This document shows, piece after piece, positions 3,901-56,631 of a stretch of 64,000 bases of DNA. Under the pieces are notes generated by a model. That model searched no databases. It saw nothing but the letters and a program-made list of their open reading frames with translations, and was not told the DNA's origin. The stretch is from Candidatus Aenigmatarchaeota archaeon (GTDB lineage: Archaea; Aenigmatarchaeota; Aenigmatarchaeia; CG10238-14; SCSR01), in the NCBI GenBank assembly GCA_016213525.1, contig JACRAE010000005.1:17405-81404 (forward strand), read 5' to 3'. Position 1 is the first letter of the stretch. Every line of letters begins with the position of its first letter. The position numbers and the translations under genes are program-made.

Positions 3901-4193
3901 TCCTTAACTTCTGCTTTCTTGACTTTTACTAACTCCCCAACGCCGCTCCCAGAGTTCCTCCTGGTTATCCCGTCCATGCGAATAATATTCAAACCAACGT
4001 CTGCGGGGTACGCGCGCATCGCTATCGCCGCGGTCTTCCTGTTCCCCTCTATCTCGACCACGTCGCCCTCTTTTATGCTGAGCTTGTTCATGTTGTTCGA
4101 GTCTATCCTGACGATTCCCCTGCCAGCTTCCTCCCTCGCGGTCAGCTCGCCGACCTTCAATTTCGTGTCTGAGCCGGGCGTTTTCTCTGCCAT
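924..4193 (-). CDS. cdc48: Cdc48/VCP/VAT-type double-ring AAA+ ATPase with a ~330-aa insertion in the D1 lid
   Basis: 1089-aa ORF. N-domain GRGIVRID...GDVVEIEG. Two Walker A GPPGTGKT, Walker B IIFIDEID and VIFFDEID, and two ATNR..IDPA(L/I)LRPGRFD second-region-of-homology segments. Confidence 0.92.
1567..1648. repeat. 82-nt GC-rich patch (D2 Walker A region), ~96% identical to 3352-3433
   Basis: Hand alignment gata[t/c]gaagttcgcaccgctctca[t/c]t[t/c]gcaacggccttcgcgagtagggtcttacctgtacctggaggaccatagagcaaaa, 3 mismatches. Confidence 0.9.
3352..3433. repeat. 82-nt GC-rich patch (D1 Walker A region), partner of 1567-1648
   Basis: Same alignment as above. Flanking sequence of the two AAA domains is clearly diverged at nucleotide level. 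Confidence 0.9.
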
Positions 4194-11344: not shown

Positions 11345-11385
11345 TCAATAATATTGGCTGGTTGTATTTAAAAGCCCCGTCGGAG

Positions 11386-12726
11386 TCACTCGATGATGAC
11401 CGGGCGCGACCTTCCCGACTGGAACATCCTCTCGATGTTGCCGAGCCTCGTCTCCATGCCGACTATCCTCGACAGCATGTCGGAGATCTCTATGTTTATC
11501 ACGTTGAGCGGCTCGTGGGCCTCCTTGACGGCCTGCCTCAGGTCCTGCTTCATCCTGTCGACGGCGGCCTCCATGTCCCTGAACTGGGTGCCGCTCAGCT
11601 TCGACTCAAGCTGCGACATCCTGTCCCTCAGCGCGCTGGTCTCGTCCTTCGTCGCCCTGTCCAAAACGGATATCTTGTTCTCGTCCATCCTCTTCATTAT
11701 CTCGTCCCTCATCCTGTCGAACTCCTGCCTCAGCTGCGGGAAGACGCGCTCGAACTCCCTTATCTTGTCGAGCCTCTGGTCCAGGTTCTCGTAGAACCCC
11801 TCCACCCTGCTCGAGACGCGCTTGACCTCGTTCTCGATGAACTTGAACTCCTCCATCCTGGCCTGCAGGTCCTTGGCGAGGCCGGACGCCTTGTCGAACG
11901 TGTCGAACCTCTGCATGAGAGACCTGACCTTCTGCATGTCGTCCGAGAGGCTCTTGGACACGCCCTCTATGGCGTCCATCCTCGAGTTGACAACTGAGAA
12001 GTTCCTGTTTAGAGCCTCGAAGTCCCTCTTCATCTCCTGGGACATCTGCTCCGGAGACCTGGTCTGCATGAAGGACATGGTCTTGTCGAGCTTCTCGATC
12101 TTCATGTCCACCTCCACCTTCCTCTTGATGAGCTCCTCGAGGACGGTCTTGACGTTCTCTATCCTGGCGGACAGCAGCTGCGTGTCCTGAGGCATGGACG
12201 GGGACCCGGCCTGCATCGCGCCCTGCTTCATGGATGCTATCTCGTGGGACAGGTCGTCGAGTCCCCTCTTGACCTCGTCCAGGGACGACATCTTTCTCTC
12301 GAGCTCGTCGATAAGCGCAATCTTTTCCGGCGCCATCTGGGACTCGGGCTTCTGCGGGCCCATCCCGTTCCTTATGTCCTCCATGAGGTCCTTGAGCTCC
12401 TCTATCCCGGCGGTCTCTACCATGACCAGGTCCTCCAGGTCCTCGACCCTCTGCTTGATGTCTGGCAGCTGCGCTATGTCAGAAATTGACTCCTGGCTCA
12501 TGCCGGAGAACTTCGACATCGTGTCCTTGAACTCCGCCAGGCCGATCTCCAGGTCTACTATCTTCTTCTCGGTATGCGACAACGACAACTTCACCTTGTT
12601 CTCTATGTCCGAGGCGCTCGGATGGTGCTGCGGTTCCGCCCTCCTCTCCTCTTTCGGCCTTGGCACGTCTTCGCTTGACATAACGTGGGACTCTTGTTCA
12701 GAAGCCGAGCCGTCTTCTTCGGGCAT
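11386..12726 (-). CDS. Long coiled-coil protein, function unknown
   Basis: 446 aa, Met/Glu/Asp/Arg/Lys-rich heptad-like sequence throughout, with an acidic/basic disordered N-terminus. Confidence 0.65.
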   Translation of the reverse strand: MPEEDGSASEQESHVMSSEDVPRPKEERRAEPQHHPSASDIENKVKLSLSHTEKKIVDLEIGLAEFKDTMSKFSGMSQESISDIAQLPDIKQRVEDLEDLVMVETAGIEELKDLMEDIRNGMGPQKPESQMAPEKIALIDELERKMSSLDEVKRGLDDLSHEIASMKQGAMQAGSPSMPQDTQLLSARIENVKTVLEELIKRKVEVDMKIEKLDKTMSFMQTRSPEQMSQEMKRDFEALNRNFSVVNSRMDAIEGVSKSLSDDMQKVRSLMQRFDTFDKASGLAKDLQARMEEFKFIENEVKRVSSRVEGFYENLDQRLDKIREFERVFPQLRQEFDRMRDEIMKRMDENKISVLDRATKDETSALRDRMSQLESKLSGTQFRDMEAAVDRMKQDLRQAVKEAHEPLNVINIEISDMLSRIVGMETRLGNIERMFQSGRSRPVIIE

Positions 12727-12751
12727 GATATAAGTTCGTTTTTCAGGGGTA

Positions 12752-13270
12752 TTATCTTTTATCCTTCAGGTAAAGGTAGTACCACACGCACACTACCAGA
12801 GCCACCATCATGGCTGACCAGAGGAGGCCGTGGACCAGGTCGAAGCCCGGCAGGCCGTAGTTGACGTACACGAGCGAGGTCGTCACCAACCTCAGCAGGT
12901 TGAAGAAGGCTATGGCAGGCAGGGCGAACGCGAGGAAGGCGAGCTTCTGGCGCAGGCTCCCGACGCCGGACGCGAAGACGAGCGCGAACATGGCGTATAG
13001 GGACTTCCAGCCCGTCGAGTCCCATGAGAGGTCTATCTGGTACAGGGAATTGCCGCTCTTCACGCCTATGTTGTGGCCGTCCAGCGACGTCTCGTATCCG
13101 AGCGAGCCCAGCGACTGCGAGAGCCCGGCGGCCCAGACGTCCCGGAACTCCGTGGACTCCAGACCGAAATAGACCGCGAGATACAGCGGAAGCGCCAGCA
13201 AGTTCAGCTTCAGGACGAACCAGAGGGCGCGCCTCAGAATAGGTATTTTATCCTCGAACAATGTGACCAC
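12752..13270 (-). CDS. Exosortase/archaeosortase-family-like 4-TM membrane protein (variant active site)
   Basis: 172 aa. IDLSWDSTGWKSLYAMFAL compared with the family xxCSGxxS block, FFNLLRLV (conserved Arg block) and FDLVHGLLW (conserved His block). Confidence 0.5.
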   Translation of the reverse strand: MVTLFEDKIPILRRALWFVLKLNLLALPLYLAVYFGLESTEFRDVWAAGLSQSLGSLGYETSLDGHNIGVKSGNSLYQIDLSWDSTGWKSLYAMFALVFASGVGSLRQKLAFLAFALPAIAFFNLLRLVTTSLVYVNYGLPGFDLVHGLLWSAMMVALVVCVWYYLYLKDKR

Positions 13271-13301
13271 TTTTATTTTCTTTGTTTTACCGTCGGATAT
13301 C

Positions 13302-14843
13302 TCAGTCGGATGCCCAGTCCATGAGGTTCCTCTTCTTGTTGACGATTCCCGTCTCTTTCATGTCCCTCAGGACTTTCTTCATCTTCCTTTCCTTGTTCAT
13401 CGAGGAGAAGAAGTACGCCTCGTCCCTCGTGCCCCGCGTTATCAGGAATATCGCCTTGCCGGCCGAGTGCCTGCCTATCCTCCCCCTCCTCTGTATGGCC
13501 CTTATCTCGCTCGGCACGGCCTCGTGGAATATCGCATAGTCGACGGACGGCACGTCTATCCCCTCCTCGCTCACCGAGGTGCCGCACAGGACGTTGAACT
13601 TGCCGTCCCTGAACCTCTTCAACACGTCTATCTGCTCGTCCTGCGACATGCCGCTGCCGTTCTTCATCGACTGCCCGACCAGCGTCTCCGTCGGTATCCC
13701 GTCCTTCTCCAGGAACTTCTTGATCTTGTCGACGGTCGACCTGAAGTTCGCGAAAATTATTATCTTCGTCTCTGGGTCCTTGTCGACGAAGTCCCTCACC
13801 ATCTCCCTTATCTTGTCCGTCTTCGGATGGTCTATGTCCCTGTCGTTCAGACCCTCAATCAGACCGATTGCGTCAATAATCTTCCCGTGCTTCAACAGCC
13901 TCTGGTCGGTCCTCTTCTTGCTGCCCTTCATCTTCTCGAAGTACTCGTGCAGGAATGGTATTCCCTGCGTCTCGATGAGCTCAATCGCATGGCTGAGCTT
14001 GATGGCCTCGGCCGACCTGATGAGGGGCCAGATGAGCATGTAGTTCTTAGTGGCGGAGTACCTCGCGGCGGTCCTGTTCTGAAGGCCCAGCAGCATGGTC
14101 CTGCTCGGTATCGTGGTCGGAACGTAGTGGTGGGACTTGAGCCACTCCATGTCCTCCTTCAGCACGTCCTGCAGGAGGCCCCTTATCCTCTTGAAGTCCT
14201 CTGGGAAGTCGACGTAGACGTAGTCCCTGTCGACGGGCTTGACGTACTCCTCGACGTCGCCGTCCGACTCGCTCCTTATCTCGACGGCCTTGATGAACAG
14301 GTTCTTGCACACCTCCTTGATCTTCGATTCTGTCCAGCCGGGAGAGGCCGTGAGAGCCAGAACCAGGGGCTGCCTCGACTGCAGCATGAACTTCCTCGCT
14401 ATGTCGGAATACGCGTAGTCCTTCACGCCCCTGTGAGACTCGTCGAAGGTGACGAAAGAAAAATCGCGCATGTTCAGCCTCCCCTCTCTTAGGTCGTTCT
14501 CTATCGTCTGCGGCGTCGCGATTACGACGGTCGCGCCATCGTACATCTCTGCCCTCTCGTGCGGCGGGGTCTTGCCCGTCACCAAAACTATCTTGCCTTT
14601 CGGTATGCTCGTCAGGGACTCGAAGCTCTTCTTGTGCTGGGCGTTCAGAGGCCTCGTGGGGGCAGTGATGAGGACCTTCGTACCGGGGAACTTCTCCAGC
14701 CTCTCCACCGCGACCAGGACGGAGATCAGCGTCTTCCCCATACCGGTGGGCAGGACGACGAGAGTGCTCCTCTCAGACGCCGCCTTCGCTATGTTTTTCT
14801 GGTAGTCGCGCACCTCGACGTCGCCGGTCTTGAGAAGCGCCAT
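13302..14843 (-). CDS. hef: Hef/FANCM/MPH1-type SF2 helicase, helicase module only
   Basis: 513 aa. Motif I LPTGMGKT, motif II DESH, motif VI QRRGRIGR, and an insertion domain between the RecA lobes. No ERCC4 nuclease or HhH region. Confidence 0.85.
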   Translation of the reverse strand: MALLKTGDVEVRDYQKNIAKAASERSTLVVLPTGMGKTLISVLVAVERLEKFPGTKVLITAPTRPLNAQHKKSFESLTSIPKGKIVLVTGKTPPHERAEMYDGATVVIATPQTIENDLREGRLNMRDFSFVTFDESHRGVKDYAYSDIARKFMLQSRQPLVLALTASPGWTESKIKEVCKNLFIKAVEIRSESDGDVEEYVKPVDRDYVYVDFPEDFKRIRGLLQDVLKEDMEWLKSHHYVPTTIPSRTMLLGLQNRTAARYSATKNYMLIWPLIRSAEAIKLSHAIELIETQGIPFLHEYFEKMKGSKKRTDQRLLKHGKIIDAIGLIEGLNDRDIDHPKTDKIREMVRDFVDKDPETKIIIFANFRSTVDKIKKFLEKDGIPTETLVGQSMKNGSGMSQDEQIDVLKRFRDGKFNVLCGTSVSEEGIDVPSVDYAIFHEAVPSEIRAIQRRGRIGRHSAGKAIFLITRGTRDEAYFFSSMNKERKMKKVLRDMKETGIVNKKRNLMDWASD

Positions 14844-25836: not shown

Positions 25837-26385
25837 ATGATATACAAGAACAACGAGACGACGATATGCCGTCTATGCCTGGAGCCGGTGACGAACTTCA
25901 TCTGCACCGACTGCCTGTTTGACAACATCCAGAAATGGGTTTCGGCCAACTCGACAAACCCGTTCCAGGTGAGGATTCTCCTGAGGGGGAAGCACTCCGA
26001 CGTGAGGAGGGTGCTCTCCAACGACGCGAACCGTGGCTTTTGTGTTTCCTGCAAGAGCGAGGTGGACGAGATCGCCTGCCCGTGCTGCTACCTTTACGAG
26101 ATGGGGACCGCGATAAAATCGATCGAGCCCGGGCTGGTCAAGGGCTTCGAGCGCGACTTCAACTTTGACGTCATAGTTCACCACAACATGTCGCAGGTCA
26201 GTCTCTGGGAGTCGATGCACGGCAGGATTCTCGCCTCCCGCTCCTTTAGGCCCATACTGATAACGGACAAGAGGAGGGGCACCGATTTGAACTCATGCGA
26301 AAGTTGCGAGGTTGACTCCGAGGAGCTGGCCGACGTTGGGGGCCACTGGCTCTGCGAGTCCTGCCGCGACGAAGCGCCCGAATAG
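25837..26385 (+). CDS. Cys-rich protein with three zinc-ribbon-like knuckle pairs
   Basis: CRLC..x8..CTDC; CVSC..x9..CPCC; CESC..x16..CESC. Confidence 0.55.
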   Translation: MIYKNNETTICRLCLEPVTNFICTDCLFDNIQKWVSANSTNPFQVRILLRGKHSDVRRVLSNDANRGFCVSCKSEVDEIACPCCYLYEMGTAIKSIEPGLVKGFERDFNFDVIVHHNMSQVSLWESMHGRILASRSFRPILITDKRRGTDLNSCESCEVDSEELADVGGHWLCESCRDEAPE

Positions 26386-26418: not shown

Positions 26419-26835
26419 CTAGAATGGGTTTCTCGACTTCGCCATCTCGAGGAGCTGCTTCACCATCTTCTCGATTTGGACGAGCCTCTCGTTGAGGTTC
26501 TCGTTCTGCAGCCTTATGCTGTCCACCTGGGTCATCATGAGGTCGATCTTCGCCTTCATGTTCTCCTGAGACGCGAACTGGTTCTGGTGCGCCTGCGACG
26601 GCTGCGGAAGCGGGGGCAGGGGGGCGGAGCCGTATCCCTGCGACGGATAATTTTGAGGCGGGTAGTTCTGAGGTAGCTGCTGCTCGTCGTACGACATCTT
26701 CTGGTCGGGGCCGAAGACGGGCTTGTTCATGCCAAGCGACGAGGAATAGTCGCCCGGGCCGGAGTCGACTGACGTGTCGTCCGCCTTCTTCTTCAAAAAG
26801 TTCAAGTTGACGCCGTCGAACAGTCCCATAATCAT
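26419..26835 (-). CDS. Hypothetical protein: amphipathic N-terminus, P/Q/Y-rich linker, C-terminal coiled coil
   Basis: 138 aa. ATGA overlap with the upstream gene. MIMGLFDGVNLNFLKKK ... QNYPPQNYPSQGYG ... KIDLMMTQVDSIRLQNENLNERLVQIEKMVKQLLE. Confidence 0.65.
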   Translation of the reverse strand: MIMGLFDGVNLNFLKKKADDTSVDSGPGDYSSSLGMNKPVFGPDQKMSYDEQQLPQNYPPQNYPSQGYGSAPLPPLPQPSQAHQNQFASQENMKAKIDLMMTQVDSIRLQNENLNERLVQIEKMVKQLLEMAKSRNPF

Positions 26836-27356
26836 GGTATTGGTACGGATGGTATTTTAAGCGTTGTCCTTATCTCGTCCACCAGCCTGTCTATCCTCCT
26901 CTTGTGCCATTCGAGGTAGCGCCTCCTCCTCGGCTGGTAGTAGCCCGCCATGTACGGGAAGAAGAAAAGAGGGAACAGAAACTTGTTTATCGGGTTGCCT
27001 AGAAAACCGTCGAACTTCGTCTCGAGCCACCCGTGTATCTCTATCCTCAGGACGCCGTCCTTCGTCGGGTCCGTCGGCTGAGATCCCTGCATCTTGATGT
27101 CCACCCTGAAGCTGGTGAGCTTGTCTATGCCCTTGTCCACGAAGAGGTGGATGAAGAACGGCCTCGGGTCGGCGGTTATGTCCCACCTGAAGTCCGGCTC
27201 GAACATGTTCGTCCCCTTGACCTCCCATATAGTCTTCATCAGCTGGTCCAGCCTGTGGTAGACGGCCATCGGGTTCGGACCCTTATAGTCTATTTGTATG
27301 TACTCCCTCGGCGCAGGTATCTCGTCTCTGATTACATTCGAGAGGCGGAGGTCCAC
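26832..27356 (-). CDS. Hypothetical protein, tandem paralogue (174 aa)
   Basis: Shares YKGPNP/YTGPNP, DFRWD/DFKWD and a C-terminal basic helix with 27362-27889. Confidence 0.7.
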   Translation of the reverse strand: MDLRLSNVIRDEIPAPREYIQIDYKGPNPMAVYHRLDQLMKTIWEVKGTNMFEPDFRWDITADPRPFFIHLFVDKGIDKLTSFRVDIKMQGSQPTDPTKDGVLRIEIHGWLETKFDGFLGNPINKFLFPLFFFPYMAGYYQPRRRRYLEWHKRRIDRLVDEIRTTLKIPSVPIP

Positions 27357-27361
27357 TCATC

Positions 27362-27889
27362 TCACTCCTTCGGAAGTATGTTCAAAAACGCCTTTATCTC
27401 GCGCTGGAAGTCTAGGAGAAGCCCGCGGCATTGCTCCCTGTAGACGTACCTCCTCTCCTGGTAGAACATCTTGTGCCAGAACGACCTGAAAATCTCGTAT
27501 ATGAGGCTCTTCTCCCAGACAGTGTCCTGCGGATAGTCCGTCCTGATTACGGCGTCTAGGGACAAGCGGAAGCTCCCCTCCTTGCCGAACTCCTTGCTCG
27601 GCTTCACGTCGCCGTTGAAGTCAACCCAGAGGAGCATGTAGGTGAAGCGGTCGAAGTCCTTGAACGCCTCTATCGCTCCGGAGAACTTCTCGGGCACGCC
27701 GGCGCGGTCCCATTTGAAGTCCCTCTCCTGGATGTTCTCGGGCTTAATCTTCAAATTGTCCTTGAGGAGTTCCATTATCTTCGCGTATGCCTTGTGCGGG
27801 TTCGGGCCCGTATAAGTGAGCCATATCTTAGGAGTCGGAAGCAGGCAGTCCTCTTCTATAGTGAGTTTTTGTCTTGCGAATATGGGCAT
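27362..27889 (-). CDS. Hypothetical protein, tandem paralogue (175 aa)
   Basis: See above. First gene of the minus-strand operon. Confidence 0.7.
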   Translation of the reverse strand: MPIFARQKLTIEEDCLLPTPKIWLTYTGPNPHKAYAKIMELLKDNLKIKPENIQERDFKWDRAGVPEKFSGAIEAFKDFDRFTYMLLWVDFNGDVKPSKEFGKEGSFRLSLDAVIRTDYPQDTVWEKSLIYEIFRSFWHKMFYQERRYVYREQCRGLLLDFQREIKAFLNILPKE

Positions 27890-27945
27890 ACTGATACCTA
27901 TTAGTTGTCGTAACCTATTAATTATTTAAAAGGATAGTGTTTCTT
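27890..27945. promoter_or_regulatory. AT-rich bidirectional promoter region with back-to-back TATA-like elements
   Basis: cctattaattatttaaaagg (27914-27933) lies ~25 nt from the ATG 27889 (minus) and ~15-25 nt from the ATG 27946 (plus). Confidence 0.5.
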
Positions 27946-28119
27946 ATGCCAGATATAGTAACGGGATTGGCGGGGGGTCTGCTCATAGTCGGGGGCTTGG
28001 CCATGATCTTTGTTTTCCCCGACATTAACGAGTATCAATCCAAGGCGTTCTCGTACACCGGGATACTCATCGGCGCTATAATGACTGCAACTGGCATAGG
28101 GCTGATGGTGTTCACATGA
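27946..28119 (+). CDS. Small two-TM membrane protein (57 aa from ATG; the track start is GTG 27937)
   Basis: Two hydrophobic spans GLAGGLLIVGGLAMIFVF and GILIGAIMTATGIGLMVF. ATGA overlap with the next gene. Confidence 0.55.
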   Translation: MPDIVTGLAGGLLIVGGLAMIFVFPDINEYQSKAFSYTGILIGAIMTATGIGLMVFT

Positions 28120-29870
28120 GCTGGGTAGGCGGGGCGTACCTCAACCACAAGTACGCGAAGGACGGTCTGCCCGCGATGCTCGGTCCCAACATGGGGGCGG
28201 CCGAAGGTCTGTATGCGGGGTTCATACCGGGCGAGATAATCCACATGTCCCCGCCCAACGCGAGGTCGCAGATGATGATAGACACCCCTCTCGGGAAGGC
28301 GAGTGGTATATTTTTCGGCTTCATGTGGCAGATGAGGAAGCGCGGGTTCCACATCGTCAAGGCTAACGAGTGGATAGAGGTGTCTCCAGTCCATTCTCAA
28401 TATTACCAGCTCACGGTGCAGCAGAAGCAGACATTAGAAGGTCAGATTAAGGCTGCCCTGCACAGCGTCCACACTTCCATATCGGACGCCGAACTCATCT
28501 ACCACGACATGAGGAGGTATAAGGAATATATGAATTATTTCGAGAGGCTGGAGGAGGCCAAGACGAAGAAGAATATGGAGGAATACAAGAAGAACAACCA
28601 GACGCTGAAGTCAATTTTCATAGACCAGGTGGATGTCCACACCGGCGAGGGGGTCGCGCTGAAGCTGATTGTGTCCAGGTGGCCTACGATAATCGTCGAC
28701 TTCATGCGCATATCTGACGAGGACGACGACCCGGGGAAGATAGCTACAAAATACCAGTTTTCAGAGGCGGAAGGCGTCGTGCTCGCGACCAAGAACAAGC
28801 TGTACAAGGAATGGAGGGAGCTTTTCAAGGGCACCGTGATGGGTAGATGGGAAAACCTGAGGGAGCTCTCTTCCGCTAGGAAGCGCTCCATAGGTGAGTA
28901 CAGGAACATGGTGAAGCCCTACATAATGAGGCACAAGATGATTAGGGAGATGGGGGAGACCAAGACCGGCAGGGACGTTCTGCAGGGTTTCTCTTGGTGG
29001 AGGCCGTCCACCCAGGCGGTGTCTATAGACGCGGCCGAATATTGGATGTGGAAGCCTTTCTGGCCCCCCGAGATACACAGGCCATCTTTGCAGTACTTCA
29101 AAGAGAAGATACCGATAACGAGAATGAGGTATCCGAAGGATATGAAGGATTCGATAAGCGACAATTGGGACATAGTAAAGGAGAAGGGGTACGCCGAGCT
29201 CGAGACATTTTTGACCGGGATAGAGCCAGTCGACAAGTGGGTCTGGTATCTGAAGGACACGATGTCAAAGTGGTATAAAGACAACTTCAATTACCGCGCG
29301 AAGCTCGACCTCATAGACGTGCTCGATGCCAGGAAGGAGCTCAACGACATGTACACGGAATATGGGAGGTGGGACTGGCTGCCGAGCCCGTACTTCATGT
29401 GCCTGGAGGTGGAGACGTTCCGCGTCGTTGTCAGGAACCCCGACGGCACGGAGTCGGAGACTTTCATATTGGGCGATTATCCGAGGCACCCGCTCATGTG
29501 CCCTCTGGACTCGCAGAATGTAATACTTCTCAGACTGCTGGAGCTGAAGCTGCAGCAGAAGGAGGTCGAGAACTACATCACCGACATGGTCGGAGAGTCT
29601 GTAGATGGCCAAAAACTCGAGGATGCAATCAAGAACGACTATCCGAACCTCTTCAACAAGGGGAACAAGGTGAAGACAATAAAAAATGAGGCGAAAGGCA
29701 AGCTGAAAAAACCAACCGACTGGGAGAGGTCCTTCAAGCTCACCAGGTCCTCCGGCCTGTACGACACCATATTCATGGAGAGGGTGGCTGCGATAATGCT
29801 GAAGGAGGTCAACGGGACCGCCTACGCCCTAGCGAGAGGATACTTCAGGTCGGCAGTCGGAGTGCCTTGA
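28116..29870 (+). CDS. Large hypothetical protein (584 aa), Trp/Tyr/Lys-rich
   Basis: Uninterrupted ORF in host-like composition. No P-loop or other motif that I recognise. Confidence 0.75.
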   Translation: MSWVGGAYLNHKYAKDGLPAMLGPNMGAAEGLYAGFIPGEIIHMSPPNARSQMMIDTPLGKASGIFFGFMWQMRKRGFHIVKANEWIEVSPVHSQYYQLTVQQKQTLEGQIKAALHSVHTSISDAELIYHDMRRYKEYMNYFERLEEAKTKKNMEEYKKNNQTLKSIFIDQVDVHTGEGVALKLIVSRWPTIIVDFMRISDEDDDPGKIATKYQFSEAEGVVLATKNKLYKEWRELFKGTVMGRWENLRELSSARKRSIGEYRNMVKPYIMRHKMIREMGETKTGRDVLQGFSWWRPSTQAVSIDAAEYWMWKPFWPPEIHRPSLQYFKEKIPITRMRYPKDMKDSISDNWDIVKEKGYAELETFLTGIEPVDKWVWYLKDTMSKWYKDNFNYRAKLDLIDVLDARKELNDMYTEYGRWDWLPSPYFMCLEVETFRVVVRNPDGTESETFILGDYPRHPLMCPLDSQNVILLRLLELKLQQKEVENYITDMVGESVDGQKLEDAIKNDYPNLFNKGNKVKTIKNEAKGKLKKPTDWERSFKLTRSSGLYDTIFMERVAAIMLKEVNGTAYALARGYFRSAVGVP

Positions 29871-29882
29871 GGTGACTAGTCT

Positions 29883-31727
29883 TTGACCGGGCGCGGAAGT
29901 TACGACATAGGAATCACGAGCGGCTGGTATGGGATTGCCAAGTCCTCGGATTTACTCGGTCTGGCACAGAAGATATCCGCCGCCACAACCAGCGGCGCCA
30001 ACTTCGTGCAGGTGGACTTTGAGAACACCGCGGAGTTCGTCGAGCCCGACGTCATCGACAGGCTGCGCCAGACCATGCAGAGCCTGCAGCTTTTCTGGGG
30101 CGCGCACGGCGAGATAGGCGAGACGATGGCATGGGAAAGCTCTATTGACGTTCACTGGAAACAGTCCCACAGGAGGCTCCATCAATACTTGGACGGACTC
30201 TATGATTATTTTGTAATGGGTAAGGATACTAGGAATCCAGGGGACAAGAGCCAGTACTTCAAATTTAGGCCGTACTACCTCAACTTCCATGCTTCCAACT
30301 CGCACCCTCTCGGTCTCTTTGTCGAGAAGTTCAGATACAGCGGCCACATACAGGCGTGTATAGACGGCAGCGACAGCTGGGAGGATTTCCTGAACAAGCC
30401 GTACAACGTGGAGCTGAAAAAATGGTTCCAAAGGAACGTCCTGTACCACATCTACGCCAGGGAAACGGGGAGACTCTACCTGAACGAGGAAGAGGTGATA
30501 GACGCCATGGTAAGATCCTTCCTCGGGAAGAGGCAGTCTTCTGGCGGCAAGCAGAGCGAAGAGGAGACGAAAAAAGAATATGCTGAATTTATGGCCGCGT
30601 TCAAGGAACCGTCCAAGGACGAGAATAAGCAACAGGAGATATTCAATTCTGCCTTTGAAGACTGGCTGACGATGTCTGCGCTGAGGAGGGTGAGGGGGAT
30701 GATAATCGAGGAGGAGTGGGCGTACGCGCTGATTGCTAAGTATCTAGAATTCAGGAGGGGCGACTCGGACGAGCCGTTGTGGAACATGTTCTTCGGAAGT
30801 AAGAAAATGGAGGACTTGGAAAAAGAATGGAGCACGAAGGACAAGGAGATAAAGCTTTTCGACAAGAAGAAGGGTCTGGTAAACCTTTTCCCGGAGATTA
30901 TTGCGATGGTGGCCACTAGATACATCATAGGTCACTTCAAGGAGAAGGCGTCGCCCGAGATGATCCAAGACAAGAAGCTCGAGCTCGCGAGGAAGAAGAA
31001 GGAGTGGGACCCGTTCTACGAGAAGACCGCCCTCGAGAAGCTGAACGAAGTCAAGGTCGTCATAACTTTCGAGACACCGGATGTGCTTGAGAACCAGAGG
31101 GAGGGACTTCAGAGGATAATCCATGCGAGGCACATCCATCTGATGGTGAAGGCGTTCAACCATCCGTACATCAAGGGATGGATAGACGCGGAGCACTACC
31201 TGCACAACGGGTTCGACCCCATAGATGAGATAAGATCCTGTCCGGACGGTTCTTTAGAGGACTTCACGGGGTTCCATGTAGGGTCGCCGAAGCCGTACGC
31301 GCCCGGCCACGACCTGATAGACGTGGGGAGCGAGGGCCAGAGGTGGATCTACGTGTACGCGTACGAGATGAGGAAGAAGGGGTTCGGCATGAAGGACAGG
31401 GGCCTGATAATTTTCGAGAGGGGCGGGGGAAGGGGAGGAGGCAACATGCCCGTACATTATCTTGGCCAGTCTGTCACGTCGATAAGGCTAATCATAGACG
31501 AGCTGAAGAAGGACACGGAGCCGAACAAGCTACCGCTGGCGTTCTTCGGCGTGTCGTCCGACGGGTTCCAGTCGATGGAGAGGCAGACCGCTATAATGAA
31601 GGAGCACTACTGGGACCCGCTCAAGGGCATGCTCTCCGTCCCGGAGGAGGAGTACACGTTCTTCGGCAAGGCAGCACTGGACAAGGGAAAGAAGCCCGAG
31701 GAGTGGAAGAAGGAAGAGCTACGCTGA
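29883..31727 (+). CDS. Hypothetical protein, probable xylose-isomerase/endonuclease-IV-like TIM barrel with a large helical insertion
   Basis: TTG start (in-frame TAG 6 nt upstream) with GAGGTGA SD 7-8 nt upstream. Strand-end pattern IGITSG, FVQVDFEN, FWGAHGE, YLNFHASN, VVITFETPD, GWIDAEHYLHNG, GFHVGS..GHDLIDVGSEG, LIIFERGG. Confidence 0.7.
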   Translation: MTGRGSYDIGITSGWYGIAKSSDLLGLAQKISAATTSGANFVQVDFENTAEFVEPDVIDRLRQTMQSLQLFWGAHGEIGETMAWESSIDVHWKQSHRRLHQYLDGLYDYFVMGKDTRNPGDKSQYFKFRPYYLNFHASNSHPLGLFVEKFRYSGHIQACIDGSDSWEDFLNKPYNVELKKWFQRNVLYHIYARETGRLYLNEEEVIDAMVRSFLGKRQSSGGKQSEEETKKEYAEFMAAFKEPSKDENKQQEIFNSAFEDWLTMSALRRVRGMIIEEEWAYALIAKYLEFRRGDSDEPLWNMFFGSKKMEDLEKEWSTKDKEIKLFDKKKGLVNLFPEIIAMVATRYIIGHFKEKASPEMIQDKKLELARKKKEWDPFYEKTALEKLNEVKVVITFETPDVLENQREGLQRIIHARHIHLMVKAFNHPYIKGWIDAEHYLHNGFDPIDEIRSCPDGSLEDFTGFHVGSPKPYAPGHDLIDVGSEGQRWIYVYAYEMRKKGFGMKDRGLIIFERGGGRGGGNMPVHYLGQSVTSIRLIIDELKKDTEPNKLPLAFFGVSSDGFQSMERQTAIMKEHYWDPLKGMLSVPEEEYTFFGKAALDKGKKPEEWKKEELR

Positions 31728-32438
31728 CTTCTTCAGGAAAGAGTCCGCCATCTGTATCTCGTCCTGGTCCCTGGGGTCCATCCAGAAGCCTTCCGCTATC
31801 TGGAACCCAAAATCAAATCCTTCGTCGATGAGAATCTGTATGGAGTCCGTGAGCTCGTACTCCCCCCTCACGGAGAGCTTCGTCTCCTCTATCGCCCTGA
31901 ATATCTCCCTCGGCAGGACGAAAAGCCCGGTGAGGGCGAGGTTGCTCGGAGGCACCTCGGGCTTCTCTATTATTTTCTTGACGTGAAATCCGTCGACCTG
32001 CATTATACCGTACTTGCTCGGATTGGCAACGGTCTTTCCGCAGAGGACCCCGTCGAAGTGCTCGGACTTCTTGAGTATAGCGTCGAGTATCTTCTTGTCA
32101 AAGATATTGTCCCCGTAGATGAGGACGAAGCTCTTCTCCGATATCTTGTCCCTGACGCATCTGACGGCATCGGCCGTGCCGCCCTTCGGGTTCTCCTGGT
32201 GAACGTACTCCATCCTCACGCCGAATTCGGAGCCGTCGCCGAAGAACTCCATTATCTGCTCCTTCATGTAGTTGACGACAATGACTATGTCCTTCAGGTC
32301 CTTGTCCCGGAGTACCTCGACCGTCCTCTGGAGGAGCGGCTTCTCCGAGTACTTTACCATGGTCTTCTGGTTCTCGCCGATTGCGGGTCTGAGCCTGGTG
32401 CCCATCCCTGCGGCTAGTATGACGGCCTTCATTTGCAT
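31719..32438 (-). CDS. Sugar-phosphate nucleotidyltransferase (RmlA/GlmU N-terminal type)
   Basis: MKAVILAAGMGTRLRP signature. 239 aa. Confidence 0.8.
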   Translation of the reverse strand: MQMKAVILAAGMGTRLRPAIGENQKTMVKYSEKPLLQRTVEVLRDKDLKDIVIVVNYMKEQIMEFFGDGSEFGVRMEYVHQENPKGGTADAVRCVRDKISEKSFVLIYGDNIFDKKILDAILKKSEHFDGVLCGKTVANPSKYGIMQVDGFHVKKIIEKPEVPPSNLALTGLFVLPREIFRAIEETKLSVRGEYELTDSIQILIDEGFDFGFQIAEGFWMDPRDQDEIQMADSFLKKSA

Positions 32439-32521: not shown

Positions 32522-33379
32522 ATGGCTTTTGACAAGCTGCAGGAAGAGCTCGCGGACACGCATCTCGCGAAGAAGCAGCCCAAGGCGGAGGAAGGAATGA
32601 ACAAAGAGGAGGTAATCGAGAGGGTCGTCAAGTTCACAAACGAGGCCAGGAAGCACTACGGCGACATGATAAAATCGGTCCTTATTTTCGGCTCCATAGT
32701 GAGGGGCGACGCAGTGAAGACAAGCGACGCGGACGTATGGGTAATTTTGGACGACACGGCGACGAAAGGAACGGACGACATAGACAAGGTGCAGTCGCAC
32801 CTGTTTCTCATAGCGCACGAGCTGAAGGACGTGCACGTCCAGACCACGCCTCTGACGGAGTTTTGGCATTGGATTAAGACCGGGTCGCCCGAGCTCGTCA
32901 ACTTCCTGAGGTACGGCCTCCCGATATACGACAGCGGCTTCATCAAGCCGGTGCAGAGGATGCTAGCGATGGGCCTGCTGCCGCCGAGCGAGGAGACGAT
33001 AAGCATACGCGCGCGCGCCGCCGAGGCAAGGCACAGGAAGGTGAAGCTCGACATGAAGTCGATGGTGTTCGAGCTGAGGTATTGCGCGAGCGACATCATA
33101 CAGGCCACGGTGATGCACCACTACAAGGCGCAGCCGGACCTCAAGGACATACCGAAGTTCCTGGAGAAGCTGGTTCAGGAGGGTAAGCTTGAGGCCGAGT
33201 GGGTCGAGAACTTCCAGAAGATGAACAAGATGTGGAAGGACATAGACCACAAGGTCGTCAAGGACGTCGACTCCGCATACCTTGAGGGAGCGCTCGTCCT
33301 GTCGAGGCGCATCATAGACAGGTTTAAGAAGCTCATCCCGAAAGAAGTCCTAGGAGAAGAGCTGCCGGAGGAAGATTAG
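32522..33379 (+). CDS. Pol-beta-superfamily minimal nucleotidyltransferase fused to a helical (HEPN-like) C-terminal domain
   Basis: FGSIVRGDAVKTSDADVWVILDD (GS..x..D.D). Paralogue of 33522-34727. Confidence 0.7.
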   Translation: MAFDKLQEELADTHLAKKQPKAEEGMNKEEVIERVVKFTNEARKHYGDMIKSVLIFGSIVRGDAVKTSDADVWVILDDTATKGTDDIDKVQSHLFLIAHELKDVHVQTTPLTEFWHWIKTGSPELVNFLRYGLPIYDSGFIKPVQRMLAMGLLPPSEETISIRARAAEARHRKVKLDMKSMVFELRYCASDIIQATVMHHYKAQPDLKDIPKFLEKLVQEGKLEAEWVENFQKMNKMWKDIDHKVVKDVDSAYLEGALVLSRRIIDRFKKLIPKEVLGEELPEED

Positions 33380-33521: not shown

Positions 33522-34727
33522 TTGACAGAAAACCAGAACGAGGCCAGACCCGCGGCTCAGGGCCCTAAGAACAAGGAGGAGAGGGCGGCCATAGCGGAGG
33601 CCTTCGCCAAGGAGGTTTTGAAGAAGTACGGGAAGTACGTCAAGGCCGTCGTGATGATGGGGTCCGTCGCCAGGCAGGAGTTCAAGCCGCTGAGCGACAT
33701 AGACGTCTTCGTCGTCATAGACGACACGGCCATGGACTTCAACCCGGAGATGAAGGAGAAGATAGACGAGGAGCTCGAGCAGATTGCGGACAACGTCCCA
33801 GGCTCCGTCGTTGTGACGAAGAACTCACAGGGAGAGGAGGACAAGACGAACTTGTTGTCGGTCCAGCCGACATACACGCTCACCGAGTTCTGGGACTACG
33901 CGAGGGTCGCGCACCCGATAATATACAACTTCATCAAGGAGGGCGTGCCGATCTACGACACGGGGTTCTTCGAGCCGATAAAGAGGCTCCTCGAAATGGG
34001 CAGGATACCGTCCACGAGGGAGGCCATAGAGAGCTACATGGAAGGAGCGCCCAAGAAGATAATGCGCGCGAAGACGGTGAAGCTGCTCATGCTCGCCGAG
34101 GATTCCTATTATGCGATGCTCAACACGTCTCAGGCCGTGCTGATGTTCATGGGTCTGGAGCCGCCGGTGCCGAACAAGGCGTACGAGGAGGTGAAGAGGT
34201 ACCTAGTGGAGCCAGGGATACTCGAGCCGGAGTACGGCGAGTGGCTCAGGGAGATAATCGAGATTAGGAAGAAGATAGAGCACAAGGAATTGATGGAGGT
34301 ATCCGGATCGTTCGTGGACGAGTGGCTCGACAGGGCGGAGAAGTACACCGACAAGATGTTCAGCCTCCTGAACGCGCTCGAGATGAGGAAGAAGGAGAAG
34401 ATTCTCGAGAGGACCCAGGAGGTTCTGCAGAAGGCCGCGATTACCGCGCTCAAGACGCTGCACAAGATGCCGGAGGAGGCGGAGGCGGCCGAGGTCATGA
34501 GGAAGATCGACATGCCGCTGAGGGACGCCTTCAAGAAGGAGTTCATAGACACGAGGAAGGTCGATCCTTACTATTGGGACATATGGAACAGGATAGACGA
34601 GATGAAGAAGATGTCCGACGACAAGAAGCTCGACAAGATATCCGAGAAGGAAGTCAACGACATGCGCGAGTATGTGAGGAAGCTCATACACGAGCTCGCA
34701 AAGAATCTGAAGACGGACGAAGAGTAG
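33522..34727 (+). CDS. Pol-beta-superfamily nucleotidyltransferase with a longer helical C-terminal region containing an R-x4-H motif
   Basis: MGSVARQEFKPLSDIDVFVVIDD; EIRKKIEHK. TTG start as given in the track. Confidence 0.7.
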   Translation: MTENQNEARPAAQGPKNKEERAAIAEAFAKEVLKKYGKYVKAVVMMGSVARQEFKPLSDIDVFVVIDDTAMDFNPEMKEKIDEELEQIADNVPGSVVVTKNSQGEEDKTNLLSVQPTYTLTEFWDYARVAHPIIYNFIKEGVPIYDTGFFEPIKRLLEMGRIPSTREAIESYMEGAPKKIMRAKTVKLLMLAEDSYYAMLNTSQAVLMFMGLEPPVPNKAYEEVKRYLVEPGILEPEYGEWLREIIEIRKKIEHKELMEVSGSFVDEWLDRAEKYTDKMFSLLNALEMRKKEKILERTQEVLQKAAITALKTLHKMPEEAEAAEVMRKIDMPLRDAFKKEFIDTRKVDPYYWDIWNRIDEMKKMSDDKKLDKISEKEVNDMREYVRKLIHELAKNLKTDEE

Positions 34728-40870: not shown

Positions 40871-41194
40871 TTTGTCAAGGTCTGGTAATCTCGAGCTATT
40901 GGAAATCGCGGGCTGAAATTCTCGCGCGAACGCTTGAACCTTACACCCCAATCCCATCAATCTCGTAGTCTACGAGTGCCCTCGTCCCGACTCTAGCCTT
41001 GCGGCCAGACTCGAGAGTGGCAATCTATTATTTCCGGACGGTTTCGAGCTTAGATGCTTTCAGCTCTTATCCGTGTATGGCTTGGCTGCTCGGCAGTGCC
41101 GATTGACAACCGATACACTAGAGGCCACGGAGGCATGTTCCTTTCGTACTTATGCCTCCTTCCGGTCAGATTGCTTACACCTCTAGTAGATAGC

Positions 41195-41228
<34 letters not shown>

Positions 41229-41341
41229 AGCGTCCCCCTTTAACCAGTGGACACCTGTACCCTTGGCTGCTGCTGCACAGCCAGGAGGGGGGGAGCCGAC
41301 AGCGACGCACCAACGCGCCGGGTCAATATGCCCGTCTTACG

Positions 41342-41455
41342 ACGGTTTATCGAATCCCAATTCGCTGATCGTTTAGTTTAGAGCTTGTAGGCTCTTTTTG
41401 CTATCAGATTCAGAAATATGTGGGAGTGAAAACCACTACTGTGGGCTTTCACCGG
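41342..41455 (-). other. 114-nt insertion in the 23S helix-89-equivalent loop (candidate intron or expansion)
   Basis: Conserved flanks ...GTGGCCGGTGAAAG | insert | GCATATTGACCCGGCGCGTTGG... compared with E. coli CCCAAGAG|UUCAUAUCGAC (~2472/2473). Confidence 0.6.
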
Positions 41456-41618
41456 CCACGGGCCCATTATCCCCGAGGTAGCTTTTCTTAGACCACCGGG
41501 CCCCATTAAGAAGCCTCGATGTATCGCTAACCCATGCTTTCGCAGCTGGATTCCGTACTTTTTAGAATCCAGTCAGCCCAGCTTTTGCGTTTGCACTCTA
41601 CTCCGGATTTCTGTCGGG

Positions 41619-41827
41619 TGATGCAAATCGTTATTAAACATCGCAAAGCGTCCACGAAAATTCTCTTGTACACTCATCAGCTACCTCTGTCTTCATCCTT
41701 TCGAAAGTCAGACTGGAGCGATCTAGTCACTGTGTCATTTCAGTTTCTTTTACGTGGGCAATGCCTCTAAAGCTGTTAGGTTTTTTAGTCCTCATGCTCT
41801 TCGAGGCAAAATGCGACTTGCATCATG
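41619..41827 (-). other. ~209-nt insertion in a domain V hairpin loop of 23S (candidate intron)
   Basis: Flanks ATCCGGGG | insert | CCCGACAGAAATCCGGAG compared with E. coli AUCCUGGUCGGACAUCAGGAG (~2300-2316). The insert termini TGATGCAA / TTGCATCA are perfectly complementary. Confidence 0.65.
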
Positions 41828-42027
41828 CCCCGGATGAGCTGAGCTTTGGGAGCCCTTGATACCTTTTCAAGGGCGTGCCGCCCCAGCCGAACTGCCCATC
41901 TGACGGTGTCCCCTTTTGGGGTGAGCAGTAAAGTTCCCGAATGATGGTGTTACACTTTCCCCTATCCCAAGACCTAAATCTTGGGCATAACGGGTCCCAC
42001 CTACTCTATGAAGCGGAAACTTTACCA

Positions 42028-42064
<37 letters not shown>

Positions 42065-42210
42065 TATCCCACTAGAGGTCTCTGGCTTATTCACCAGAAT
42101 GGCAATTTCACTGGGTACCCGCCCAGGACAGCGGGAAGATTGTTGAGCCATTCAGACGGGCCGTCATTTAAACGGCAAGGGATTACGCTACTTTACGACG
42201 GTCAGAGTTT

Positions 42211-42403
42211 GCGGGGTCCGAAATGAGGGAAACTTTCCATAACGACTTTGAATCGCTTGAAAAATCTCTCGATTTCTTTCTCCAACTCGTAATCCACCCT
42301 ACTGAATGATGCTCCTTGGCTAACCTGTTTAACGCCTCCCAGAAGTAGTTCGTTGGAACTGTGAAAGCAATACTTGCGTACTCGCCTCCCTCACTTCCTG
42401 ACC
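42211..42403 (-). other. ~193-nt insertion in the 23S helix-69-equivalent loop (candidate intron)
   Basis: Flanks GGCGGCGGTAA | insert | CTCTGACCGTCG compared with E. coli GGCGGCCGUAACUAUAACGGUCC. The insert ends pair as GAAGTGAGGGA / TCCCTCATTTC and GGTC / GACC. Confidence 0.7.
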
Positions 42404-44389
42404 TTACCGCCGCCGTTTACCGGGGCTTCGATCGGTTGGAACCGACTTTGACCTACCGGCACTGGGCAGGCTTAAGAGATTGTACTTGTGCTTGCGCATT
42501 GGCAATCTCCATCGTTTTTGTTAAACAGTCACCTTCCCCTTGTCACTGCGACCTGCTTCCCCTTGCGAGGAAACAGGCACTCCTTATACCAAGGATACGG
42601 AGCTAACTTGCTGATTTCCCTAGGCAGGGTTTTCCCAACACACCATGGTCTTTTCAACCAGTCTACCTGTTACGGTTCTCGGTACGGACATATAGGATCC
42701 TTGATTGCCCACTTTTCACGGGCACCTGGAATTCGCAGAACTCCGCATACGCGGGGCTGTTCGTGCATTCCTCCCCTTCTCCTCGTTACAAGACTCCAGG
42801 GACTTCAACACTTAACTTACGTCCACGTGTCCAGATGCGTCGCGAGCAACCCTTGCGTTGCCGCACGTACCCATATGGTATCGGAATATTAACCGATTTC
42901 CCTATCACTAAATCCGGTTAAGGTTTAGTTTAGGACCGACTTACCGCCAGCTGACGAACATTGCTGGCAAACCCTTAGACTTAAGGCGGTGGAGATTCTC
43001 ACTCCACTACGTTGCTACTCATGGCAAGATCTGCATTACCGAACGGTCCACCACTGCTTACGCAGAGGCTTCTGCCCGTACGGTACGCCTCCCTACTACC
43101 CCTTATCAGGGTCTATGGTATCGGTAGTTGACTTAGTCCCTTCCATCTTCAGAACGCACATCCTCGGCAGGTAAGCTATTACGCACTTTTTAACTGATGG
43201 CTGCTTCTGAGCCTACAGTCCTGCTGTCTGAGGATGCACATTTCCTTCTACGTTTAGCCAACATTTTGGGACCTTAACCATAGTTGGGGTTATTTCCCTT
43301 TCGCCAACCGAGTTTAACCCGGTAAGCTCATTCCAGACTTCTACGGCGGTACCAGGTTCGGAGTTTGGCAGCAAAGCTGAACCTTTCGGTCCTTGACTTC
43401 ACAATCAGTAACTCTACCCTGATACCGGCCTCGGTCTAGACTGCACTGACATGCATTTCGGGAGGAACCAGCTATCTCGTGTCTCGTTAGGCTTTTCACC
43501 CCTAATCCCAAATCACACGAGTGATTGGCAGTTCAACAACGCTTCGGCCCTCCACCATACTTTCGTACGGCTTCAGCCTGTTCAGGATTAGATCGACACG
43601 CTTCAGGTCGTAAACCAGCGACTTCACGCCCTTTCAGACGCCGCGCCACATTCAACATTACGCGCTTGTCGCTTTCGCTACGGCTACCTCGCTTAAACGA
43701 GTTAACCTCGCCGCTGATATACACTCCTTGCCCCGTTTTTCAAAACGGACGCTAAAACACTGTAAGCGACACCTCGTACTGCAGCCTCTCGACTGTTTCC
43801 TTCGGGTCGCACCTTCCGTGCCTTAGCTGACTTATACCGACTTGGTTTCAGGTTCTTTTAACCCGGCTCACGCCGTTCTTTTCAGCTTTCCGTCACCGTA
43901 CTATTGCACTATCGGACTTCGTTAGTATTTAGGGTTGGCACTTAATTCTGCCAGATTCACGCTCCGTATCTAGGGAACGTTACTCAGGATACTAGGCATT
44001 ATCCTTTCTCACTTCCTCTACGCGGCTATCACGCTTTAACGCGCGCCTTTCCAGGCGTCTTCGAGTCGCGAGACTGGGATAGACCCTAGTCCTTCAACTC
44101 CACATCCATATCGCATTACTGCGACTGTTCGGTTTGCCCTGCGCCACTTTCACTCGCCGTTACTAATGGCATGCAAATTTGTCTCTTTTCCTGCGGGTAG
44201 TAAGATGCTTCACTTCCCCGCGTTCCCGTACCTCTCGGTACCTACCGAAGTAGAAGATCCTCATTCGGACACCTCGGGGTCGTAGGCTGCATGCGCCTAA
44301 CCCGAGACTATCGCGGCTTGCCGCGTCCTTCTTCGGCTAACGAAGCCAAGCCATCCACCAAGCGGCTGTTATTACCAGACCTCTTTGAC

Positions 44390-51319: not shown

Positions 51320-51394
51320 TGGACCGGACGGGATTTGAACCCGCAGCCTCCCGCTTGCAAAGCGGGCGTTATAACCAGGTTTAACTACCGGCCC
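51320..51394 (-). tRNA. tRNA-Ala (anticodon TGC)
   Basis: Hand-folded. Acceptor GGGCCGG/CCGGTCC with G3:U70, anticodon arm CCCGC-TTTGCAA-GCGGG, T loop TTCAAAT, discriminator A. Confidence 0.9.
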
Positions 51395-52978: not shown

Positions 52979-54526
<1,548 letters not shown>

Positions 54527-56517: not shown

Positions 56518-56631
56518 TGCTGGGGGGGAGATTTGAACTCCCGATTCCGGCGTTTCTTAGCTCTCATCCTTGCGTCGAAGCTCATACGGCGTATGAGCGC
56601 CGTGTCCTAGACCAGGCTAGACGACCCCAGC
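56518..56631 (-). tRNA. tRNA with CAT anticodon (elongator Met or Ile2) carrying a 38-nt intron at 37/38
   Basis: Acceptor GCTGGGG/CCCCAGC and anticodon stem CGGCG...CGCCG, which only closes if 38 nt (CGCCGTATGAG...CTAAGAA) are removed. Exon CTCATA pairs with intron TATGAG. T arm GGGAG-TTCAAAT-CTCCC. Confidence 0.85.

Follow-up and report, generated by a model that had tools for sequence, protein, structure and literature searches.

Six adjacent genes in a 64,000-nucleotide (nt) stretch of DNA from Candidatus Aenigmatarchaeota archaeon (assembly GCA_016213525.1, contig JACRAE010000005.1, forward-strand positions 17,405 to 81,404; this whole stretch is referred to as the window) form a divergent module. 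We consider the six genes to be one co-functional, vertically inherited unit, with a probability of about 0.8. The genes are named after the length of their products in amino acids (aa): p138, p174 and p175 lie on the minus strand and p57, p584 and p614 on the plus strand, the two arms diverging from a short spacer. The module is most likely a phylum-wide, vertically inherited divergent operon pair in Aenigmarchaeota, which are DPANN archaea. Five of the proteins are orphan families; p614 belongs, as an extreme variant, to a known enzyme superfamily.

An earlier note on this DNA, made from the sequence alone, had described the six open reading frames (ORFs), all of which lie exactly where it put them, strands and coordinates included. 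Direct reading of the sequence also bore out its account of the junctions. Start and stop codons overlap as ATGA at p174/p138 and at p57/p584, p175 and p174 are separated by 5 nt and p584 and p614 by 12 nt, and the TTG start of p614 is preceded by a GAGGTGA Shine–Dalgarno motif that overlaps the p584 stop codon. For p57, an upstream GTG at 27937 would give a product of 60 aa; the ATG (57 aa) was retained because the orthologue at locus L006 begins with MPDL. The module has a GC content of 0.537 against 0.540 for the window, and no Walker A motif occurs in any of the six proteins, in agreement with the host-like composition and the absence of a P-loop NTPase stated in that note.

The divergent spacer is AT-rich, as had been reported. 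It holds a TTAATTATTTAAAA stretch, which could be one or more putative TATA boxes serving both arms. Spacers at other loci measure about 60 nt and are 75–90% AT; a CTAAAAAG-TATA-like box, conserved by clade, lies in them about 25 nt ahead of the microprotein start. Judging from these sequence patterns, a single shared bidirectional promoter is plausible.

Conservation of the module across Aenigmarchaeota

ORFs were called in 85 loci and searched with iteratively built hidden Markov models (HMMs), and the conservation scan used one genome per GTDB species. Locus denominators (55 or 47) refer to the loci with enough flanking sequence. Two of the proteins, p614 and p584, have 100% identical counterparts among the hypothetical proteins of a metagenome-assembled genome (MAG) labelled 'Candidatus Aenigmarchaeota archaeon'. 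We retrieved 87 homologues of p614, 357 of p584 and 142 of p175, none of which carries a functional name. Their organism labels are almost always Aenigmarchaeota; the exceptions, Kosmotogaceae and WOR-3, are probably mis-binned. Relatives of p584 are present in 177 species-representative genomes, where every named phylum is Aenigmatarchaeota.

Across the 80 fetched loci, the order p138(-) p174(-) p175(-) <-> p57(+) p584(+) p614(+) recurs with hardly an exception wherever the flanking sequence suffices. p174, p175 and p57 were each present in 53 of 55 loci, p138 in 48 of 55 and p614 in 46 of 47. Median gaps are 1 nt from p584 to p614, 4 nt both from p174 to p175 and from p138 to p174, and 25 nt from p57 to p584, with a divergent spacer of about 62 nt. 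These tight junctions persist at 30–60% protein identity, and an arrangement that recurs in dozens of genomes at such divergence exceeds chance. Synteny in other genomes, on which the earlier note had staked its proposal, is therefore near-invariant. Its picture of a single six-gene module stands as far as the order is concerned and needs amendment: the microprotein gene is often doubled, Pol-beta-type nucleotidyltransferase genes mostly follow p614, and the p175–p174–p138 trio also occurs without the plus arm in other lineages. In one MAG, JZ-2_201705_bins_269, the complete module is present twice, on different scaffolds (L008 and L018), which reflects either a true duplication or a bin that mixes two populations.

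Synteny alone is not decisive, because a fair degree of conservation extends to the flanks. On the side of the minus arm, 38 of 55 loci have a YchF GTPase gene, and one or more NTP_transf_2 nucleotidyltransferase genes directly follow p614 on the same strand in 43 of 47 (median offset of 3,684 nt from the p584 start). The six genes, all of them lineage-specific orphans without a known independent functional tie, might thus be unrelated housekeeping genes left unshuffled in a slowly rearranging, reduced genome. We consider this improbable. Insertions occur at the borders between module and flanks and none was seen within the module, and the overlaps and 1–4-nt gaps are kept down to 30% protein identity. 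In locus L092 the genes have been rearranged and are still clustered: a p174-like gene comes right after p614 on the same strand, p175 lies divergently upstream and p138 is 3 kb away.

Evolutionary rates point in the same direction. Pairwise p-distance matrices from 32 loci were compared by partial Mantel tests controlling for YchF. Among the six proteins r ranged from 0.45 to 0.86 (all p=0.001), the highest value being that of p584 and p174; such values are inflated by shared phylogeny and p-distance saturation, so that co-variation is supportive only. The second of the two flanking nucleotidyltransferases (NTP401) gave r of -0.16 to 0.04 against the six module proteins, a control that is possibly blurred by paralogue mixing. 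With these reservations, the residual co-variation is specific to the six. A functional unit, as the earlier note had argued from gene coupling, is favoured because insertions spare the module, shuffled variants stay clustered and rates co-vary.

An origin as a mobile, viral or defence island, of which all-orphan gene content is typical, is effectively excluded by the distribution, given that the module is conserved by vertical descent throughout the phylum and keeps a fixed place on the chromosome, and is further opposed by the host-like GC content, by zero PADLOC matches and only sub-threshold coiled-coil PHROGs matches for the six proteins, by the lack of IMG/VR relatives and by the lack of any observed integrase or repeat, all in keeping with the earlier statement that mobile-element hallmarks are missing.

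Table 1. Genes and intergenic spacer of the module, followed by neighbouring genes, in window coordinates
Feature	Position	Strand	Comment
p138	26419-26835	-	ORF; small adaptor-like protein, 138 aa
p174	26832-27356	-	ORF; p175 paralogue, 174 aa
p175	27362-27889	-	ORF; 175 aa
Divergent intergenic spacer	27890-27945	none	56 nt, GC 0.27
p57	27946-28119	+	ORF; microprotein with two transmembrane segments; stop overlaps p584 start (ATGA)
p584	28116-29870	+	ORF; large soluble protein
p614	29883-31727	+	ORF, TTG start; TIM-barrel metalloenzyme candidate
Cys-rich protein	25837-26385	+	182 aa, several CxxC pairs; convergent with p138; no Pfam match
Sugar-1-phosphate nucleotidyltransferase	31719-32438	-	PF00483, E 4e-39; inserted after p614
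Pol-beta/KNTase-type nucleotidyltransferase	32522-33379	+	285 aa; Pfam NTP_transf_2/Polbeta; neighbour, not core
Second Pol-beta/KNTase-type nucleotidyltransferase (NTP401)	33522-34727	+	401 aa; kanamycin nucleotidyltransferase (KNTase) match E 4e-5; not core

Protein families of the module

p614 of the window has no match in Pfam or NCBIfam. Among 77 full-length homologues, 17 (30–34% identical) matched PF01261, the xylose isomerase-like TIM barrel family, with a best E of 3e-10. The best score, 35.1 bits against a cut-off of 31.1, covers the C-terminal half of the barrel. The TIM barrel guessed at in the earlier note thus holds by transitivity only, and p614 would be placed in PF01261 on the same terms. 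Nine residues are invariant in the 77 sequences (H75, E77, H136, E397, D435, H438, H465, H476 and E512), which supports the suggestion, likewise made before, that the enzyme is metal-dependent. Four of them, E397, D435, H465 and E512, would supply the metal-ligand set of Glu (strand β4), Asp (β5), His (β6) and Glu (β8), in alignments of low confidence.

Once its insertion is removed, the p614 profile is collinear with E. coli Nfo (endonuclease IV), in one comparison by local hhalign only (E 0.011). The aligned pairs (p614 first, Nfo second) are H136–H109, E397–E145, D435–D179, H438–H182, H465–H216 and E512–E261. H136 of p614 and H109 of Nfo both lie in an 'NFH' motif, and D435 and H438 form a DxxH motif. 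Six of the nine Nfo ligands align with invariant residues of p614, whereas the β2 His and the β7 Asp/His are ambiguous. A canonical PF01261 protein from locus L001 aligns to p614 in the same way, again with low confidence. The nfo, UvdE and sugar-isomerase models of NCBIfam matched neither p614 nor its homologues, including those of a divergent clade, and the p614 profile found no credible match among PDB sequences, its stray hit to FtsZ (E 0.018) included. We rejected p614 as an endonuclease IV orthologue because no nfo model matches it; only six of the nine ligands align, moreover. Thus, p614 is probably a very divergent barrel of the xylose isomerase/endonuclease IV type with a predicted multinuclear metal site.

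This protein shares with PF01261 members and Nfo a C-terminal half that exceeds the gathering score in its homologues and the six aligned ligands. However, its 614 aa are double the length usual for PF01261 proteins, a conserved stretch of about 250 aa (roughly residues 140–390) is inserted between the third and fourth barrel motifs, those of H136 and E397, and it carries a conserved C-terminal extension of about 100 aa with a conserved tail (...PEEWKKEELR). It is also always paired with p584 and p57, unlike PF01261 proteins.

Sequence comparison confirms p175 and p174 as paralogues (28% identity, E 3e-11), as the earlier note had described them. p175 is the most conserved member of the module, with 45–86% identity across the phylum and an invariant N-terminus (MPIFAR.K), C15 and C154. 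Its AlphaFold2 model (mean predicted local distance difference test score, pLDDT, 84) has the topology β-β-α-β-β-β-β followed by a C-terminal helix of 43 residues, that is, a curved antiparallel sheet with a long C-terminal helix. The top Foldseek matches in PDB are mostly Bet v 1, PYL, PR-10 and Ups1–Mdm35 proteins, plus Cyt1Aa, all with marginal scores (E 1.9e-4 to 3e-3, probability 0.33–0.98, template-modelling (TM) score 0.15–0.30). The p175-family profile retrieved nothing from the Bet v 1/START/SRPBCC clan in PDB, and individual scans of family members against Pfam gave no recurrent family. p175 resembles Bet v 1/START/SRPBCC proteins in size (about 170 aa) and in its sheet with a long C-terminal helix, but its β-β-α-β4-α topology differs from their β-α-α-β6-α, and, unlike them, p175 and p174 are always tandem paralogues. 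On the strength of the model, a helix-grip, ligand-binding fold for the pair is a weak lead and not a claim of membership. Both proteins are basic and end in a helix rich in Arg and aromatic residues, the last 50 aa of each having a charge of about +4; p174 has an isoelectric point of about 9.2–9.3.

A HMMER search with the p175 profile gave 244 cluster representatives, all of them single-domain proteins of about 160–190 aa and most of the p175 or p174 types of Aenigmarchaeota. Other p175-like members form tandem arrays in MAGs labelled Candidatus Nanohaloarchaea (three genes, 158, 185 and 181 aa) and Candidatus Woesearchaeota (two genes, 171 and 164 aa; the match of the 171-aa protein is weak, hhalign E 0.043). 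No p584 or p614 gene was found within 8 kb of these arrays. The p138 partner is so far confirmed only in Aenigmarchaeota and in loci L093 and L094. In L093, p584 is divergent from p175–p174–p138 with no adjoining microprotein or p614 gene, and L094 has the trio only. The system is therefore layered, with an older core of tandem p175-like paralogues common to other DPANN, to which p584, and then p57, p614 and the nucleotidyltransferases, were added in Aenigmarchaeota. In L094 (3166-5916), the trio adjoins, on the same strand and with a 78-aa ORF between, a gene for a geranylgeranyl-reductase-like flavin adenine dinucleotide (FAD) enzyme and a ferredoxin gene; as the only such case, it may be coincidental.

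p584 has no known fold. Its model is confident (pLDDT 84, predicted TM score 0.77) and shows two helices of about 58 residues each (94–150 and 217–275) flanking the most conserved segment of the protein, residues 168–196 (FIDQVDVHTGEG...RWPTIIxDF), in addition to beta-rich regions, a basic disordered linker (495–535) and a C-terminal helix. Foldseek returned no match for this model (best E 0.26 in PDB and 0.056 in BFVD, TM score at most 0.17). The family likewise gave no recurrent or credible match when its members were scanned against Pfam and its profile against PDB, and no structural or profile likeness to ESCRT-III/PspA, SMC or other coiled-coil scaffolds was seen. An HD-domain or other enzymatic reading, considered for the invariant H130-D131, D170, D173 and H175, was dropped, as neither Pfam nor Foldseek supported it.

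p57 is the only one of the six proteins with hydrophobic segments (residues 3–28 and 37–57), and its architecture, with a FP..YQ loop between two transmembrane segments, is that of the two-transmembrane microprotein described before. In many lineages, a second tandem paralogue of 47–50 aa, also with two transmembrane segments, is encoded upstream. One divergent clade has a form of about 111 aa with extra N-terminal hydrophobic segments, which matches DUF308 weakly and below the cut-off (E 0.002). Longer variants and neighbouring ORFs were scanned for informative domain fusions; none was found, apart from a weak coiled-coil match to Apg6.

The p138 family has 62 members at the equivalent position in other loci. 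Their hydrophobic and basic N-terminus (MG[IL]F...KKK) is conserved, as is a coiled-coil helix of about 45 aa at the C-terminus, and the P/Q/E-rich linker that joins the two is variable; 97% of the members have at least two consecutive K/R within the first 40 aa. Small membrane-tethered adaptors typically combine an N-terminal membrane-targeting sequence, a linker and an oligomerization helix, following the logic known from SepF and MinD. p138 resembles such adaptors in its conserved N-terminus with a K/R cluster, its variable linker and its conserved C-terminal helix; it differs from SepF, whose counterpart of this single coiled-coil helix is an alpha/beta domain. No sequence match of p138 to SepF, Min, ZapB or other such proteins was found. 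Weak coiled-coil matches to FlaC_arch, GvpT and YabA were all far below the cut-off, and a gas-vesicle reading based on GvpT (E 0.015) was dropped because neither GvpA/J/M nor GvpN is present.

Taken as a whole, the module is not described by any curated family, defence catalogue, phage family or solved structure, or in the literature that was searched. Nothing significant was obtained with Pfam and NCBIfam for any of the six window proteins, and PDB profile searches with five family alignments yielded nothing credible (stray FtsZ, TFIIIA and BPI hits, E > 0.01). These searches agree with the earlier view that none of the six proteins can be assigned with confidence to a family and that the system is undescribed; we regard it provisionally as a system without a known counterpart, which does not by itself prove a new mechanism. 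In the very small genomes of DPANN archaea, each conserved gene is likely to matter, and yet a large part of this core lacks annotation. The six orphan families apparently make up the same machine throughout at least 177 species-level genomes, and the module is probably central to the cell biology of Aenigmarchaeota, whatever its role. p175/p174 and p614 offer concrete small soluble targets for structural and biochemical work.

Candidate functions

The six genes most likely encode subunits of one membrane-associated protein complex. Membrane association had been suggested in the earlier note, and the conserved two-transmembrane p57 and the hydrophobic and basic N-terminus of p138 are sequence features that support it. 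In the mechanism we propose, p57, which is translationally coupled to p584, would hold a stalked p584 scaffold to the membrane on its cytoplasmic side. p138 may provide a second, peripheral tether through its N-terminus and join the complex by its coiled coil. A p175/p174 heterodimer would bind a hydrophobic or amphipathic ligand and dock via the invariant N-terminal peptide of p175, and catalysis would fall to p614, as a multinuclear-metal hydrolase or isomerase whose substrate is a phosphoester or sugar head-group. The favoured cargo would be a membrane lipid, either for acquisition or for head-group remodelling. The whole chain, from membrane-tethered metalloenzyme complex to lipid-like or phosphoester cargo, is tentative, and it is more probable that one of its links fails than that all of them hold.

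Several observations weigh against this proposal. The likeness of p175 to Bet v 1/START proteins is weak (TM score 0.15–0.30, E of at least 2e-4), and none of 86 p175-family members matched the SRPBCC/START models of Pfam at E <= 0.5. The basic, Arg- and aromatic-rich C-terminal helices fit nucleic-acid binding as well as membrane binding, and the ligand pattern of p614 resembles that of a DNA-repair nuclease, endonuclease IV. The amphipathic character that had been attributed to the p138 N-terminus received no numerical support, since shuffled sequences have a hydrophobic moment of 0.52 and the N-terminus one of 0.51, in a test that does not discriminate. Furthermore, loci L093, L094, L086 and L087 have the trio or p175-like genes without the TIM barrel; the enzyme is therefore not obligatory for the core.

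A lipid cargo is weakly favoured over nucleic acid, its main alternative. Host-dependent archaea such as these are thought to need lipid acquisition. Ca. Nanohaloarchaeum antarcticus, for one, relies on its host for lipids (PMC11035636). It is conceivable, if doubtful, that the trio is a DPANN-wide lipid-transfer module, so far unrecognized and consisting of a helix-grip heterodimer with a membrane tether, which in Aenigmarchaeota would have been built into a larger inner-membrane machine for the uptake and remodelling of archaeal lipids from the host, with p57 as anchor, p584 as stalk and p614 as multinuclear-metal phosphoesterase. Were this so, it would supply the missing route by which lipid-auxotrophic DPANN symbionts get their membranes. 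A cargo of either kind, lipid or nucleic acid, would bear on how symbionts obtain building blocks that they do not make themselves.

The alternative with nucleic acid as cargo is repair or salvage: p614 would be an endonuclease IV-like phosphodiesterase, p174 and p175, with a TBP-like fold, would bind nucleic acid, p584 would be a coiled-coil scaffold, the downstream Pol-beta-type pair would take part, and the membrane tether would help to take up or salvage nucleic acids of the host, on which nucleotide-auxotrophic DPANN depend. The six invariant p614 residues that align with endonuclease IV metal ligands, including the His residues of the NFH and DxxH motifs, speak for it, as do the charge of p174 and p175 and the NTP_transf_2 genes after p614. 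A DNA ligase gene adjoins the nucleotidyltransferase gene in L090 and lies a few kb off in L004, and DnaG/Toprim genes stand just downstream of the p175-like arrays in the Woesearchaeota- and Nanohaloarchaea-labelled MAGs (L086 8803-10125 and L087 10149-11309). The latter linkage was dropped, since neither the window nor any Aenigmarchaeota locus has a DnaG gene close to the module. As for p614, the Nfo alignment is of low confidence, and neither nfo nor UvdE models match the protein or its homologues. NTP401 shows no co-variation with the module, enzymes of the KNTase type are not polymerases, and none of the six proteins has a recognizable DNA-binding domain. A two-transmembrane anchor and a membrane-type N-terminus would also be unusual for repair enzymes. 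Repair or salvage is, on this balance, unlikely.

The complex might instead be a structural scaffold with a membrane-shaping, cytoskeletal or division role, in which p584 and p138 assemble on the membrane via p57 and the p138 N-terminus, p174 and p175 are structural adaptors and the TIM barrel is accessory or regulatory. The long coiled-coil helices of the p584 model and the architecture of p138, which recalls small division and cytoskeletal adaptors, would suit such a role, as would locus L093, where the trio and p584 occur without p614; a universal, single-copy module also suggests housekeeping cell biology. Nevertheless, no match to ESCRT-III/PspA, SepF, FtsZ-associated, SMC or bactofilin proteins was found, the weak FtsZ match of the p614 profile is not credible, and the invariant catalytic-type residues of p614 argue for real chemistry. 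A purely structural role thus seems unlikely too, and the membrane-tethered metalloenzyme complex remains the reading that we prefer.

Neighbouring genes and other features of the window

The two Pol-beta/KNTase-type genes downstream of p614 are tandem paralogues, both matching NTP_transf_2/Polbeta and KNTase structures. Two such genes are found in the window and in several other loci, and none is present in L092 and L093. Their products belong to the KNTase-like Pol-beta superfamily, without co-variation with the six module proteins. In the window, the sugar-1-phosphate nucleotidyltransferase gene separates p614 from this pair, its 3' end overlapping the p614 stop by 9 nt, a placement shared by 4 related loci only. 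On the other side, the gene for the 182-aa Cys-rich protein is found beside the module in only about 15–20 related loci. One archaeal contig with a divergent copy of the module (L090) encodes, at 10738-14088 on the minus strand, a SecA-like protein of 1116 aa (SecA_DEAD, P-loop_SecA), which is unusual for archaea.

Elsewhere in the window, positions 924-4193 on the minus strand encode a CDC48/VCP-like double-AAA ATPase of 1089 aa with two GPPGTGKT Walker A motifs. Between its ATPase domains lies a K/E/N/I-rich, coiled-coil-like insertion of about 330 aa, whose DNA (about 2000-3000) has a GC content of 0.24–0.30 against about 0.55 around it. The archaeal 23S (40879-44381, minus strand) and 16S (52979-54526, minus strand) rRNA genes are not linked; some 8.6 kb that include a tRNA-Ala gene (51320-51394) separate the two. 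At 3503 nt, the 23S match is longer than its model of 2987 nt, which suggests an insertion or intron of about 500 nt. Finally, a 114-nt Rfam tRNA match at 56518-56631 on the minus strand, missed by ARAGORN, is probably an intron-containing tRNA gene.

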